Part shown: piece by piece, positions 48,555 to 52,034 of the stretch
How positions within the stretch are numbered: the stretch's first letter is position 1
Layout: each line of letters begins with the position of its first letter
From: an uncultured bacterium
GTDB lineage: Bacteria > JADJOY01
Length of the DNA stretch: 64,000 bases
Assembly: GCA_964650975.1 (NCBI GenBank)
Contig: CAZYWA010000001.1
Span: 6,980-70,979 of the forward strand
Reading direction: 5' to 3'
The notes under the pieces: model-generated
Told to the model about the DNA's origin: nothing
The model's input: only the letters and a program-made list of their open reading frames with translations
Database searches by the model: none
Made by a program: the position numbers and the translations under genes

Positions 48555-49418
48555 TCAGCATTTTAGATAGCTGATTGTAAAATCCGGTTGCGCCCGCGCG
48601 AAGACGCGCGCGGCGTTGCCGTGCAGATAGCGCTCGAGCACGGCGGCCGGCAGGTCGAGCTTCCGGGCCTCGTCGAGGCAACGCTTCATCGGGATCGCCG
48701 GATGGTCGGAGGCGTAGATCACCCGATCCGCGCCGCGCGTGCGCATGAAGTGGAGCAGCGAGGCCGGCAGGTACTTGGGCAGGTAGGCCGAGGTCATCAG
48801 GTGAAGGCGCGGATACTTGAGCATCAGGCGGATCGCGACGTCCCACCACGGGTCGGCACCGTGCGCCATCACCAGCGTGAGCTCGGGAAACGCCAGACAC
48901 ACGTCGTCCAGATGCAGCGGGTCCTGCACGTGCGCCGGCGCGGGTGGCCCTGGGATGCCGGTGGTGAGCGCCAGCGGCAGGCCTAGCTCGATGCAGGCGG
49001 AGTAGAGAGGGAAGTACGCGCGATCGCTCGGTGCCAGCCCGACGGTGAACGGCGTCACGCACGCGAGCACCACGGGCTCTGACCGCGCGTAGCTCGCGAG
49101 CTCGCGAAGTGCGGCCACGCCGCGACGCGGATCGACCTTGGCCGCGAGCGCGAATCGTTCGGGTGCCGCTTCGGGAAACGCCAGCACGTGCTTCGACGGT
49201 GCGTCGGCGTCGCTCATGAGCAGGGCGCGCTCGACGCCCAGCTCGTCCATCATCGCGAGCGTCTCGGCGACGCTCATGTTCCGCCAGTAGTCTTCGCCCG
49301 ACTTGAACACGTCCTTCGCGGCCGCCCTCATGTAATCGGCCATGCCCAGCTCGCCCATGTTGACGTTGACCCACGCGTCGATGGCGCGCACGGGCTGCGT
49401 CGAGGCCGTGTCAGTCAC
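48555..49418 (-). CDS. Amidohydrolase_2-family (ACMSD/LigI/LigW-like TIM-barrel) protein.
   Basis: N-terminal RAIDAWVNVN, a central metal/acid motif region and C-terminal DHP. Start is uncertain (GTG at 49418 or ATG at 49517). Confidence 0.65.
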   Translation of the reverse strand: MTDTASTQPVRAIDAWVNVNMGELGMADYMRAAAKDVFKSGEDYWRNMSVAETLAMMDELGVERALLMSDADAPSKHVLAFPEAAPERFALAAKVDPRRGVAALRELASYARSEPVVLACVTPFTVGLAPSDRAYFPLYSACIELGLPLALTTGIPGPPAPAHVQDPLHLDDVCLAFPELTLVMAHGADPWWDVAIRLMLKYPRLHLMTSAYLPKYLPASLLHFMRTRGADRVIYASDHPAIPMKRCLDEARKLDLPAAVLERYLHGNAARVFARAQPDFTISYLKC

Positions 49419-49593
49419 TCGCGTTCCGGAGGGCTTTAACGACCCAGCCCCACACCCACAGTAGGCCCACCGCCATTGCGAACCACCGCGTGTCCGGGTC
49501 GGACACGCGAATGTCACCGAGCGCGAAGATGACCACCCAGGCGAGCGCGATCCCGGCCGCCAGGCGGCGCGGGTGGCAGAAGATGTCGAACAA
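49411..49593 (-). CDS. Possible small two-TM membrane protein of 60 aa.
   Basis: Two hydrophobic segments (LAAGIALAWVVIFALG; MAVGLLWVWGWVV). Its stop overlaps the downstream start. No homology recognised. Confidence 0.25.
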   Translation of the reverse strand: MFDIFCHPRRLAAGIALAWVVIFALGDIRVSDPDTRWFAMAVGLLWVWGWVVKALRNASD

Positions 49594-49629
49594 GCCGAAG
49601 AACAGCGGATCTCCGCGACGAGCCCGGGA

Positions 49630-50943
49630 TCACTCGATCGGCGACATCATCGCGGTGGTGAGCTGCTTCACGACGGCTCCGCAGGTCACGGGCTGCTTGC
49701 TGCCGGCCTCCACGCGCGAGCCGCCGCCGTACGAGGTCGGCCGCACGTCGACGTCGCTCGCCTCGGCGCGCAGCGCGGCGACGGTGGAGCGCTCGCGCGG
49801 GCGGCTCGCGAACGGATCGAAGCGGAAGTGGCGCATCGCGTTCGCGTGGGTGATCTTCTCGATCACCTCGTCGGAAAGCCCGGCGAGCTCGCTCGCCACT
49901 AGCTCCGGCGAGCGCGGCCAGGTGGTGTCCGAGTGCGGATAGTCACACTCCCACGTGATGTTGTCGGGGTTGGCGGCGGCCAGATCGCGGATGCCGGTGC
50001 GATCCGAGATGAAGCACGTCACGATGCGCTCGCGGAAGAGCTCGCTCGGGCGCTTCGCGGAGAAATCCTGGTTGGTCCACAGGTGGTGATGGTCGTAGAC
50101 GTAGTCGATCCGCTCCAGGAAATAAGGCACCCAGCCGATCCCGCCTTCGGAGAGCGCGATCTTGAGCGTGGGGAATTTCCGCAGCATCGGCGACCAAACC
50201 AGGTCCGATGCGCAGTTCACGACGTTGAGCGGGATGAGCGTGATCATCACGTCGATGGGCGCGTCCATTGACGTGAAGTACATGCCCTCGCTCGAGCCGA
50301 TGTGCATGCACACGATGGTGCCGTGGTCCTCGCAGGCCTTCCAGAGCGGATCCCAGTGATCGCTGTGGTACGTGGGCAAGCCGACCTTCGCGGGCTGATC
50401 GCAGAGCGTGATCGCGTGGCAGCCCTTCCGGGCGACGCGCTCGACCTCGCGGGCCGCGAGCGCCGGATCCCAGAGCGGCACCAGCGCCAGCCGAATGAAG
50501 CGGCCGGGCGCCGAGCCGCACCACTCGTCGATGTGCCAGTCGTTGTAGGCCTGCAAGCAAGCGAGGCCCAGCTCCTTGTCCTTCGCCTTGTGGAACACCT
50601 GGCCCGCGAGGCCGGTGAACGACGGGAAACACAGCGACGCGAGTACGCCGTTGGCGTTCATGTCGCGAACTCGCTCGCGCACGTCGTGGCAGCCGCGCCG
50701 GATCTGCTCGAACGAAGTCGGCTCGACGCCGTACTCCTCGGGCGGCCGCCCCGCGACCGCGTTGAGCCCGATGTTGGGGAGCTGCTGGCCCTCGAAGAGC
50801 CACACGTCGCTGCCATCTTTCTTGCGAACGACGCGCGGCGCCCGATCGCGCCACACCGTGGCGACGTGGCGCTCGAACATGTCGGGCGGCTCGACGACGT
50901 GATCGTCGATGCTCACCAGGATGAGGTCATCGAGCTTGGTCAT
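49630..50943 (-). CDS. Amidohydrolase_2-family protein of 437 aa with a C-terminal extension.
   Basis: LILVSIDDHVVEP at the N-terminus, plus internal HxH-type and D motifs of the ACMSD-like superfamily. Confidence 0.65.
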   Translation of the reverse strand: MTKLDDLILVSIDDHVVEPPDMFERHVATVWRDRAPRVVRKKDGSDVWLFEGQQLPNIGLNAVAGRPPEEYGVEPTSFEQIRRGCHDVRERVRDMNANGVLASLCFPSFTGLAGQVFHKAKDKELGLACLQAYNDWHIDEWCGSAPGRFIRLALVPLWDPALAAREVERVARKGCHAITLCDQPAKVGLPTYHSDHWDPLWKACEDHGTIVCMHIGSSEGMYFTSMDAPIDVMITLIPLNVVNCASDLVWSPMLRKFPTLKIALSEGGIGWVPYFLERIDYVYDHHHLWTNQDFSAKRPSELFRERIVTCFISDRTGIRDLAAANPDNITWECDYPHSDTTWPRSPELVASELAGLSDEVIEKITHANAMRHFRFDPFASRPRERSTVAALRAEASDVDVRPTSYGGGSRVEAGSKQPVTCGAVVKQLTTAMMSPIE

Positions 50944-50963
50944 CAGGTCACCGTCGCCGGTCG

Positions 50964-51040
50964 CCGGAGGGCTGCGGTCTCTCGCAGCCGCAACGCACCT
51001 TCTGTTGCAGACGCCGCGGACGCGACGGAGCGCGTGCCTC
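50964..51040. repeat. REP-like element copy k, between the Rieske and amidohydrolase genes.
   Basis: CGGAGGGCTGCGGTCTCTCGCAGCCGCAACG ... CGCGGACGCGACGGAGCGCGTGCCTCCG. Confidence 0.65.
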
Positions 51041-51086
51041 CGGGCCCGATCGGTGGCATTCGCGCAGGGACGATCATTGCCGCTTC

Positions 51087-52034
51087 CTACCAGGTGGTGC
51101 TGAAGAACTGCTTCATCCAGCGCCGGTAGACGCCGAACGGCCCGTCGCCTTCCACCAGCATCGGGCGCGTGAGATACGCCTTGTTTTCCCAGATCGGGAT
51201 GTCTTGCCCCATCTGCTTCTCGAGATCGCGGATGATCGCGGCGCCCACACCGTGGGTGTCGCTGGCGCCGTCGACGGTGTTGACCGAGTAGGCGAACGTG
51301 ACGTCGGTGACTTCGTCGTCGACGGGCGTGGCGGTGTTCACCATCCAGGTCTCGATGATGCCGGTGAGATGCACGGTCTGGAAGCCGGGGCCGTAGTCGG
51401 TGGTGTCGATGCCGCCCGCGATGTCGCCTTGCGGAGTGCCGAGCTTCATCCTGGACACGCATTTCAGCAGCGGCCCATCCGCCTCCACCGTGCTCTCCGG
51501 CATGGTGTGCGCTCCGTGCACGTACACGAAGTGCGCGCGGTCGACGGCGTTCTCGTTCATGTCGAGCCAGCGGCTCTTCACCGTCCAGCGCAGGATCCGG
51601 TAGGGCGTCCAGTTTGGTTTCCCGAAGTGCGGCAGCTCCGGCACCTCGAAGCTCGGAGGCGCGTTCTGGTCGTGGTGCCACACCATCACCAGGCCGTTTT
51701 TCTCTGCGACCGGCCACGTGCGGATGCGCGCATTCGCCGGCACCCGATCGCTGTACGGCACCCGCTTGCAGGCTCCGTCGGCGCCCCATTCCCACGCATG
51801 AAACGGACAGCGGATGCGATCGCCGTCGACGATGGTGCCGCCCACGCCGAGATGCGCGCCGAGATGCGCGCAGATCGCGTCGAGCACGTGCGCCTCGCCG
51901 CGCGAGTCGCGGAACATCACCAGCTCGCGGCCGAAGAAGCGCGCCGAGCGAAGTGCCCCCGGCGCCAGCTCGTCCGAGTACGCGACCCGGAACCAGCCGT
52001 TGGCGTAGGGCGGAAACGGAAATCGGCTTGGCAT
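51087..52034 (-). CDS. Rieske [2Fe-2S] non-haem-iron oxygenase α-subunit-like protein (VanA/KshA-type single-component oxygenase).
   Basis: Rieske motif CAHLGAHL...CPFHAWEW, followed by a mononuclear iron region (DxxHxxxxH-type, NAVDRAHFVYVHG). Confidence 0.7.
   Translation of the reverse strand: MPSRFPFPPYANGWFRVAYSDELAPGALRSARFFGRELVMFRDSRGEAHVLDAICAHLGAHLGVGGTIVDGDRIRCPFHAWEWGADGACKRVPYSDRVPANARIRTWPVAEKNGLVMVWHHDQNAPPSFEVPELPHFGKPNWTPYRILRWTVKSRWLDMNENAVDRAHFVYVHGAHTMPESTVEADGPLLKCVSRMKLGTPQGDIAGGIDTTDYGPGFQTVHLTGIIETWMVNTATPVDDEVTDVTFAYSVNTVDGASDTHGVGAAIIRDLEKQMGQDIPIWENKAYLTRPMLVEGDGPFGVYRRWMKQFFSTTW

Follow-up and report, generated by a model that had tools for sequence, protein, structure and literature searches.

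Gene organization of the locus

The window analysed here is a 64,000-nucleotide stretch of contig CAZYWA010000001.1 (positions 6,980 to 70,979, forward strand) from the uncultured bacterium JADJOY01 (assembly GCA_964650975.1). Between positions 48555 and 52034 it carries three solid genes, all on the minus strand, that code for a Rieske oxygenase of 315 amino acids (aa) and for two proteins of the Amidohydrolase_2 fold of 437 and 287 aa (Table 1). A preliminary description saw in this region a candidate operon for catabolism of aromatic or heterocyclic compounds that has no reductase partner. The part of this proposal that stands is a catabolic oxygenase operon lacking such a partner, while the aromatic substrate class and the chemistry attributed to the 437-aa protein do not.

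The window has a G+C content of ~70% and its genuine genes have a G+C content at third codon positions of ~0.85-0.92. The 315-aa and 287-aa translations have identical counterparts in public assemblies, and a contig in ENA that is identical across the region has all three genes called and the same neighbours. These records and the Pfam matches confirm the described genes at their minus-strand positions. The Rieske and 437-aa genes are separated by 143 nt, the 437-aa and 287-aa genes by ~211-238 nt. No terminator-like signal above background was found between the three genes in a terminator scan, a promoter scan of the region gave background level only, and an Rfam search of positions 47900-52300 had no match.

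Pfam scans covered ~60 open reading frames (ORFs) across the window. They detected no ferredoxin, FNR-type reductase or two-domain extradiol dioxygenase, and no DitA-type dioxygenase or other ring-cleavage enzyme, in agreement with what the preliminary description had reported. The nearest approach to ring-cleavage folds is a small glyoxalase-fold ORF (9566-10222) and a cupin (26861-27619), both far from the three genes.

Table 1. Genes and sequence elements of the window, with the evidence for their assignment
Feature	Position	Strand	Evidence
KshA-clade Rieske non-haem iron monooxygenase (predicted), 315 aa	51087-52034	-	Pfam Rieske 2e-20, KshA_C 7e-37
Bipartite repeat copy resembling repetitive extragenic palindromes (REP) or miniature inverted-repeat transposable elements (MITE), in the spacer between the Rieske and 437-aa genes	~50964-51046		Two 28-33 nt modules recurring in the window
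DitZ-like amidohydrolase-related dinuclear oxygenase (ARO; predicted), 437 aa	49630-50943	-	Amidohydro_2 7e-30; phmmer matches in PDB to DitZ and PtmU3; both ARO motifs
60-aa ORF, TTG start, unconfirmed as gene	49411-49593	-	Coding-like composition only
Amidohydrolase_2-fold protein, BB4693-like uncharacterised branch, 287 aa (or 278 aa)	48555-49418	-	Amidohydro_2 8e-31
TetR-family regulator (TetR_N, TetR_C_38)	46159-46875, likely start 46845 (228 aa)	-	Pfam; ENA gene call
Acyl-CoA dehydrogenase, small (beta-type) subunit, PimD/IpdE2-like, Scd4B-like	46884-48014	+	NCBIfam PimD, IpdE2
Acyl-CoA dehydrogenase, large (alpha-type) subunit, Scd4A-like	52876-54066	-	PDB matches; identity to Sphingomonad protein
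Acyl-CoA synthetase (AMP-binding), possible member of the module	42231-43868	+	Pfam; ENA gene call
Palindromic operator-like site TTTTTGACGAATCGTCAAAAA, upstream of the Rieske gene start	within 52049-52077		Inverted-repeat and pattern search
Operator-like site TTGATACATCGTCAA, in the 41-nt gap between the divergent TetR and small acyl-CoA dehydrogenase genes	46861-46875		
YcxB-like / bacterial PH-domain membrane protein, between the large acyl-CoA dehydrogenase gene and the Rieske operator	52171-52812	-	
Predicted lipoprotein, 374 aa	54074-55198	-	Partial catalase-domain match only, 1e-6
HTTM-domain (vitamin K carboxylase-like) membrane protein and Fur-family regulator, between the TetR and acyl-CoA synthetase genes	43872-46049	-	
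PrkA, DUF444 and SpoVR trio (stress/sporulation-associated kinase module), left end of the window	1-4704	+	

The Rieske protein

The carboxyl-terminal domain of the Rieske protein matches KshA_C at 7e-37 in Pfam, against a weak 2e-5 for VanA_C, and its best relative of known structure is KshA (PDB 2zyl, 4e-48). The 2Fe-2S cluster would be bound by C55, H57, C76 and H79 and the mononuclear iron by H168, H173 and D278. None of these seven ligands varies among 24 aligned sequences, KshA included, so that the KshA-type assignment of the preliminary description is borne out with an intact 2-His-1-carboxylate site. The combination of Rieske and KshA_C domains and the cofactor ligands are the same as in the KshA structures 2zyl and 4qdc. 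The protein is, however, ~70 residues shorter than these enzymes (315 versus 386-394 aa), and its gene is paired with that of an amidohydrolase-fold protein, a pairing not seen for the solved KshA enzymes.

BLASTP comparison gave 164-167 bits to KshA of Mycobacterium tuberculosis and Rhodococcus rhodochrous (33-34% identity over ~320 aligned residues), against 207-215 bits to Rieske proteins like Nov2c228 of the Sphingomonad cluster discussed below, 256-259 bits to the two closest of three proteins encoded by a Planktothrix plasmid and 326 bits to a protein of Myxococcus stipitatus. In a neighbour-joining tree the window protein groups with the Nov2c228-like proteins and is split from the KshA of M. 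tuberculosis and R. rhodochrous in 100/100 bootstraps. The lower scores to KshA and the separate clade argue that it is not a KshA orthologue. It is classified here as a KshA-clade monooxygenase outside KshA proper: phylogenetic placement supports the type suggested earlier but not membership in KshA itself. Scans of the window found neither a KshB-type reductase nor KstD near its gene.

The 437-aa protein, a predicted dinuclear oxygenase of the DitZ/PtmU3 type

The 437-aa protein belongs to the Amidohydrolase_2 family, as had been described, but its function is predicted to differ from the LigW- or ACMSD-type hydrolysis or decarboxylation proposed for it. A phmmer search of PDB retrieved DitZ first (8uyr, 2.8e-106; 42% identity over 401 residues) and then PtmU3 (6omp, 5.8e-45), while LigW, ACMSD and similar enzymes are distant matches only (1e-17 to 1e-5). 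DitZ, PtmU3, AibH2 and SfbO form the AROs, which are marked by an amino-terminal D-x-H and a carboxyl-terminal D-x-P-H-x-D/E motif, the latter preceded by ~200 or more residues; these motifs occur in no characterised hydrolase or decarboxylase of the PF04909 fold (PMC13154177).

Both motifs are present. D13-D14-H15 on the first beta strand aligns with its counterparts in DitZ and PtmU3, as do the mid-barrel ligands H214 and E266, and the carboxyl-terminal motif reads D334-Y-P-H337-S-D339. All seven metal-site residues and the two motifs are invariant in 28 homologues. The match to DitZ and the ARO-specific motifs argue against a decarboxylase or hydrolase, and the protein is predicted to be an amidohydrolase-related dinuclear oxygenase. 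The E-value of the DitZ match is not directly comparable with the isofunctional threshold of E <1e-110 used for the AROs in a sequence similarity network (PMC13154177).

The position gamma1, which is the x of D-x-H, is occupied by Asp as in DitZ, gamma5 by Thr, and the residue past the last Asp is non-aromatic. These features match the high-potential, diiron-dependent subgroup of AROs, to which the protein may belong. Many AROs are genomically linked to Rieske ferredoxins but this subgroup usually has no such partner (PMC13154177). As for DitZ and PtmU3, no small Rieske ferredoxin accompanies the window protein. Its gene differs from theirs in lying directly downstream of a full-length Rieske oxygenase gene and in a context that is neither the dit (abietane) nor the platensimycin cluster. 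NCBIfam has no family for this protein or for the 287-aa one. The family, whose members with 60-80% identity occur in very many environmental Myxococcota and other genomes, goes under the name amidohydrolase, which is likely a widespread misannotation that the present assignment corrects.

The 287-aa amidohydrolase-fold partner

The 287-aa protein has an amino-terminal stretch reading IDAWVNVN, where beta1 has the motif D14-A-W16 in place of HxH; the degeneration of the amino-terminal metal motif noted previously is confirmed. Homologues begin with MRAID, and the true start may for this reason be the GTG at 49391, which gives a protein of 278 aa. The sequence matches the uncharacterised protein BB4693 of Bordetella bronchiseptica (PDB 3irs, 4e-20). 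BB4693 and CAC3332 (3cjp), two amidohydrolase_2 proteins from structural genomics without known function or context, are only 20-23% identical to it, and BB4693 does not have the Asp-His of beta8 that is present in the myxobacterial proteins of the 287-aa type.

Among myxobacterial and Sphingomonad homologues, invariance is limited to D14, H186 and several Arg, Tyr, Gln and Lys residues. H186 is the sole invariant member of the canonical active-site set (HxH of beta1, His of beta5/6, Asp of beta8), the D238-H239 pair of beta8 being lost in the Sphingomonad proteins. The earlier comparison with LigI is not supported: the protein does not have the active-site set of the LigI, LigW and ACMSD type, and these enzymes are not its closest structural relatives. 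It is best described as a predicted member of an uncharacterised branch of the Amidohydrolase_2 fold. A degenerate ARO paralogue similar to AibH1 was also considered for this protein and ruled out by an hhalign probability of 1.7% between the two amidohydrolase-fold profiles of the window and by synteny.

Conservation of the gene order

A scan that used one genome per species yielded 45 loci coding for a Rieske relative of at least 40% identity (numbered with the prefix L), most of them in metagenome-assembled genomes of Myxococcota or "Deltaproteobacteria". Synteny was counted over the 42 loci with enough sequence. In 30 of them the Rieske gene has a homologue of the 287-aa gene directly behind it, at a distance of 9-75 nt, and three further loci have the DitZ-like gene between the two as in the window. 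In three loci of SAR86 type the order is reversed, the amidohydrolase gene immediately preceding that of the Rieske protein. As judged from gene order, the conserved unit is the pair of the Rieske and 287-aa genes.

The usual core is made up of the genes for the large subunit of an acyl-CoA dehydrogenase (ACAD), the Rieske protein, the 287-aa protein, the small ACAD subunit (on the other strand) and a TetR regulator. The large ACAD gene flanks the Rieske gene in most related loci and a TetR homologue lies within the examined flank in 20/45. Recurrent neighbours are short-chain dehydrogenases/reductases (SDRs), paired family III CoA-transferases, AMP-binding ligases, Ltp-like thiolases with DUF35 proteins, MaoC hydratases and transporters of the major facilitator superfamily. 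An ARO homologue is found within 10 kb in ~11 loci. The DitZ-like gene separates the Rieske gene from the 287-aa gene in one clade only, that in which the Rieske proteins share 85-88% identity with that of the window. A crude motif scan for a KshB-like reductase (an ORF with FNR and 2Fe-2S domains) detected none within 10 kb in the 45 loci.

Two loci in other genomes are informative on the biochemical context. The cultured bacterium M. stipitatus (L071, CP102770, 6121159-6141968) codes for a 287-aa homologue with 60% identity whose start overlaps the end of a cytochrome P450 gene. It is part of a cluster resembling those of steroid catabolism, with a CoA ligase, two ACAD pairs, an NMO-family protein, a KshA-like Rieske protein, a KstD-like flavoprotein, an SDR, an enoyl-CoA hydratase and the P450. 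In L075 (8001-11067) a DitZ-like ARO gene is directly followed by those of a zf-ChsH2/OB (DUF35) protein and of an Ltp-like thiolase. A ChsH2-type DUF35 protein paired with such a thiolase acts as a retro-aldolase on beta-hydroxy steroid acyl-CoAs. The order in L075 suggests a pairing of hydroxylase and retro-aldolase. Genes for a P450, a CoA-transferase, a CoA ligase and a TetR regulator are also found near this ARO gene.

In two SAR86 metagenome-assembled genomes (L046 and L048, ~7000-11000) the genes of a sulfotransferase, an SDR, an Amidohydro_2 protein and a Rieske/KshA_C protein stand in this order, with no acyl-CoA dehydrogenases nearby; this order shows that the Rieske-amidohydrolase pair exists also in marine SAR86.

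The acyl-CoA dehydrogenase and TetR genes

The closest relatives of known structure to the large ACAD subunit are Tcur3483 (6wy9/6wy8, 5e-52) and 4x28_A (8e-49), while ordinary ACADs match at 2e-31 or worse. Tcur3483 is an IpdE1 homologue and 4x28_A is ChsE4 of M. tuberculosis, each a subunit of a two-subunit ACAD of steroid pathways. Matches of the small subunit in PDB include the IpdE2-like Tcur3481.

The site TTTTTGACGAATCGTCAAAAA upstream of the Rieske gene is a near-perfect palindrome. Three or more palindrome matches were obtained in 14/100 shuffles, so that their occurrence in the window alone is not statistically striking. The palindrome is kept ~50-60 nt upstream of the Rieske gene in 5/5 close relatives (L005-L009), and the sequence TTGATACATCGTCAA, which is related to this palindrome, is found also at the TetR gene of L007 and L009, with a related site there in L014. 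A TetR-controlled regulon is likely because these operator-like palindromes are kept in relatives.

Relationship to the bile-salt side-chain cluster of Sphingomonads

A search of plasmid records with the 287-aa and Rieske proteins found their homologues encoded side by side in pNL2 of Novosphingobium aromaticivorans, in other Novosphingobium and in several Sphingobium plasmids. The pair adjoins genes of a CoA ligase and an amidase, joined in Sphingobium by those of an ACAD pair. Identity to the proteins of N. aromaticivorans F199 and Sphingobium TomTYG74 is 35-37% for both the Rieske and the 287-aa protein, 38-39% for the large and 33% for the small ACAD subunit (the latter with the first ACAD of the Sphingobium pair). 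Four proteins of the window thus have homologues in the cluster for bile-salt side-chain degradation of Sphingomonadaceae, to which they are proposed to correspond. Weaker Rieske matches of the genome scan (L053-L065, 25-31% identity over the Rieske domain only) were considered as candidates for the Sphingomonad cluster and rejected: no 287-aa match accompanies them, and it was the search of plasmid records that yielded the true counterparts.

The cluster has been described from Sphingobium sp. Chol11 and from N. aromaticivorans F199. In Chol11 it is cluster 2, which codes for SclA, for Scd4AB (Nov2c221/222), for the Rieske protein Nov2c228 and for a "putative amidase", Nov2c229; the cluster proteins are made only on bile salts that bear a side chain, Nov2c228 gave rise to steroids carrying a hydroxyl at an unknown position, a specific reductase did not turn up, and the Rieske protein and the hydrolase are stated to have unknown roles (bioRxiv 10.1101/2021.05.19.444901, 10.1101/2021.06.24.449856). 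No later literature settling the functions of these two proteins was found. The bsd I cluster of Caenibius tardaugens comprises genes for TetR, an amidohydrolase induced ~21-fold by cholate, a monooxygenase, Scd4AB, SclA and a MaoC hydratase (PMC12882949).

The window shares with the Sphingomonad cluster the two-subunit ACAD, a KshA-related Rieske protein outside true KshA, the adjoining Amidohydro_2 gene, perhaps a CoA ligase, and the lack of a dedicated reductase encoded nearby; a TetR regulator is common to it and to C. tardaugens bsd I. It differs in several respects. The host is from another phylum, the Rieske gene precedes the amidohydrolase gene whereas the order is reversed in Sphingomonads, and the two ACAD genes lie apart, one on each side. 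There is no amidase-signature gene (Bsa) and there is an extra DitZ-like oxygenase. The module is probably a variant of this known type of cluster, in which the new part is the added DitZ-like diiron hydroxylase. The conservation of the Rieske-amidohydrolase pair in at least three bacterial lineages, usually with an ACAD of the steroid two-subunit type, means that it is not exclusive to Sphingomonads and strengthens the case for a side-chain degradation route still undescribed.

Proposed function

The module is proposed, with a probability of roughly 0.6, to carry out the TetR-controlled, CoA-dependent oxidation of a bulky carboxylic acid of the steroid or polycyclic terpenoid type in its host, an uncultured bacterium resembling Myxococcota. 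Its ancestral core would be an alpha2beta2-type two-subunit ACAD, the KshA-clade Rieske monooxygenase, the amidohydrolase-fold protein encoded directly downstream and a TetR repressor that probably binds TTGAC-N5-GTCAA palindromes before the Rieske gene and before its own gene. In the clade of the window a second hydroxylase, the DitZ/PtmU3-type diiron enzyme, would have been inserted between the genes of the Rieske and amidohydrolase-fold proteins.

The acid would be converted to its CoA thioester, the alpha,beta bond desaturated by the dehydrogenase, and unactivated C-H bonds hydroxylated by both oxygenases with electrons supplied by a reductase encoded elsewhere. The new hydroxyls may ready a C-C bond for non-thiolytic cleavage, either retro-aldol or hydrolytic. 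The 287-aa protein is a candidate for this cleavage or for a subsequent hydrolysis or dehydration. From the observed gene content, cofactor motifs, homologies and gene order we infer which class of substrate is used, how the steps follow one another and what the 287-aa protein does. For PtmU3 and in Ambrox degradation, a tertiary C-H beside a carboxyl or CoA-thioester group is described as being hydroxylated before the ring opens in a retro-aldol reaction, and KshA uses a vinylogous version of the same logic (PMC13599519). The DitZ-like/DUF35/thiolase gene order in L075 fits this hydroxylate-then-retro-aldol logic.

Several points weigh against the proposed oxidation of a steroid- or terpenoid-type acid. 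Identity to the Sphingomonad proteins is modest (33-39%), and the match between the CoA ligases is generic (26-27%). Nov2c229 is equated with the Amidohydro_2 gene on gene order and not on the Chol11 sequence. Co-transcription would have to extend over the spacers of 143 nt and ~211-238 nt, one of which holds a repeat element. The window has no KstD, HsaC-type dioxygenase, thiolase or aldolase, so that the pathway is incomplete there. The top NCBIfam matches of the two ACAD subunits are those of pimeloyl-CoA dehydrogenase, PimC (273 bits) and PimD (220 bits), far under the curated cut-offs of 624 and 653 bits.

These last matches leave room for a non-steroid alicyclic, branched or medium-chain dicarboxylic acid, oxidised by a PimCD-like dehydrogenase, with the oxygenases stripping blocking substituents, and the steroid-ring enzymes KstD and HsaA-D are missing from the window. 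Such a substrate is nevertheless considered unlikely. Besides the low PimC and PimD scores, the structures closest to the large subunit, by ~20 orders of magnitude in E-value, are those of steroid-pathway two-subunit ACADs, the characterised members of both oxygenase families (KshA, Nov2c228, DitZ, PtmU3) act on polycyclic substrates only, and the M. stipitatus cluster has a KstD-like flavoprotein and a P450.

Some Myxococcota make sterols, and the genes might serve to tailor an endogenous sterol, terpenoid or other secondary metabolite. AROs are known from biosynthetic clusters, such as PtmU3, MscE and SorK/R/S in Myxococcota (PMC13154177), and the closest plasmid-borne homologues of the Rieske protein (38-40% identity) are encoded in a Planktothrix cluster together with a P450 and an emopamil-binding protein. 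A biosynthetic role is also improbable, since Pfam scans of the window found no terpene synthase, polyketide synthase, non-ribosomal peptide synthetase or sterol-synthesis gene, and since the conserved partners are of beta-oxidation type (ACAD pairs, CoA transferases and ligases, hydratases, thiolase-like proteins) and come with a TetR regulator, as is typical of catabolism. The Planktothrix cluster, on plasmid p2 of Planktothrix agardhii (L072, NZ_LR882940, 800-9700), has three short KshA-like Rieske genes, whose neighbours code for a P450, an FAD oxidoreductase, a carbamoyltransferase and a protein of the emopamil-binding (sterol isomerase) family; it may be sterol-modifying.

The three consecutive genes on one strand also recall the AibH1H2-AibG-AibF system of Rhodococcus wratislaviensis, in which two amidohydrolase-fold subunits work with a Rieske ferredoxin (PMC7782822). 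By analogy they would form a single monooxygenase with a catalytic ARO, the 287-aa protein as a non-catalytic partner similar to AibH1 and the Rieske protein passing electrons, a scheme in line with the frequent linkage of AROs to Rieske ferredoxins (PMC13154177). This is very unlikely. AibG is a 169-aa ferredoxin, whereas the Rieske protein of the window is a full-length oxygenase of 315 aa that has a KshA_C domain and whose mononuclear iron site is intact. Clear paralogy (28% identity) links AibH1 to AibH2, and their genes lie together, whereas the profiles of the two window proteins are barely related and their genes adjacent in one clade only; in 30 loci the 287-aa gene follows the Rieske gene with no ARO gene in between. 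The gamma1 Asp and gamma5 Thr of the ARO are features of the high-potential group, which usually goes without a Rieske ferredoxin.

Catabolism of lignin- or tryptophan-derived aromatics or heterocycles, with the Rieske protein as O-demethylase or hydroxylase and the two Amidohydro_2 proteins as a LigW/LigI/ACMSD-type decarboxylase and lactonase, as originally proposed, can appeal to the Pfam family of both proteins, to the weak VanA_C match and to the distant LigW and ACMSD matches of the 437-aa protein, but is largely refuted by the DitZ match with the D-x-H and D-x-P-H-x-D motifs, by the far stronger KshA_C match, by neighbours that code for steroid-type two-subunit ACADs, a CoA ligase and TetR with no ring-cleavage dioxygenase among the scanned ORFs, and by the bile-salt induction of the homologous Sphingomonad cluster; its scheme of O-demethylation followed by decarboxylation or lactone hydrolysis is left without support.

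Within the proposed oxidation of a steroid- or terpenoid-type acid, a more specific and speculative idea concerns the pair itself. The Rieske and amidohydrolase-fold proteins of Myxococcota, Sphingomonadaceae and SAR86 might constitute a dedicated "hydroxylate then cleave" unit that needs neither thiolase nor aldolase to shorten or remove an acyl side chain of steroid or terpenoid type; the degenerate and possibly metal-independent protein of the 287-aa type would cleave a C-C or thioester bond. Were this so, the unit would supply the chemistry still missing from the bile-salt side-chain pathway of Sphingomonads. Experimental handles are offered by the cultured M. stipitatus, by the TetR operator and by the many orthologues available for expression. 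The module suggests that uncultured Myxococcota take part in the turnover of steroid or terpenoid acids.

Repeat element, 60-aa ORF and other flanking genes

The spacer between the Rieske and 437-aa genes holds a copy of a repeat family made of two 28-33 nt modules ~46 nt apart that is scattered over intergenic regions of the window. Both modules recur at seven or more other sites (8474, 10310/10357 (10310-10388), 10794, 12513, 15147-15223, 30480/30526 (30480-30558) and 45561), and the REP copy reported previously is therefore real. In the relatives L006, L007 and L009 the spacer between the Rieske and ARO genes is only ~20 nt as judged from the start positions of the matches, and the operon copy of the repeat appears to be absent from the closest relatives.

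The 60-aa ORF, described before as a small protein with two transmembrane segments, exists as a reading frame, and its composition is coding-like (G+C by codon position 0.64/0.49/0.87). Its stop overlaps the annotated GTG start of the 287-aa gene. It has no family match in Pfam or NCBIfam, no protein or DNA similarity in the closest relatives, where the flanking genes are 80-88% identical, and no call on the identical ENA contig. On these grounds the ORF is not conserved and is unconfirmed as a gene. A perfect 10-bp hairpin, CGCGTGTCCG-ACC-CGGACACGCG, is found within it at 49487-49509, in the spacer between the 437-aa and 287-aa genes, with no T-run after it.

The YcxB-like gene is a clade-specific insertion because the large ACAD gene directly precedes the Rieske gene in most relatives. 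The acyl-CoA synthetase gene, at a distance of 3 kb, has the Fur and HTTM genes between itself and the TetR gene; a Fur homologue is found near the TetR gene of the relative L007 as well. L006 and L007 encode a homologue of the 374-aa lipoprotein (53-54% identity) upstream of their large ACAD genes.

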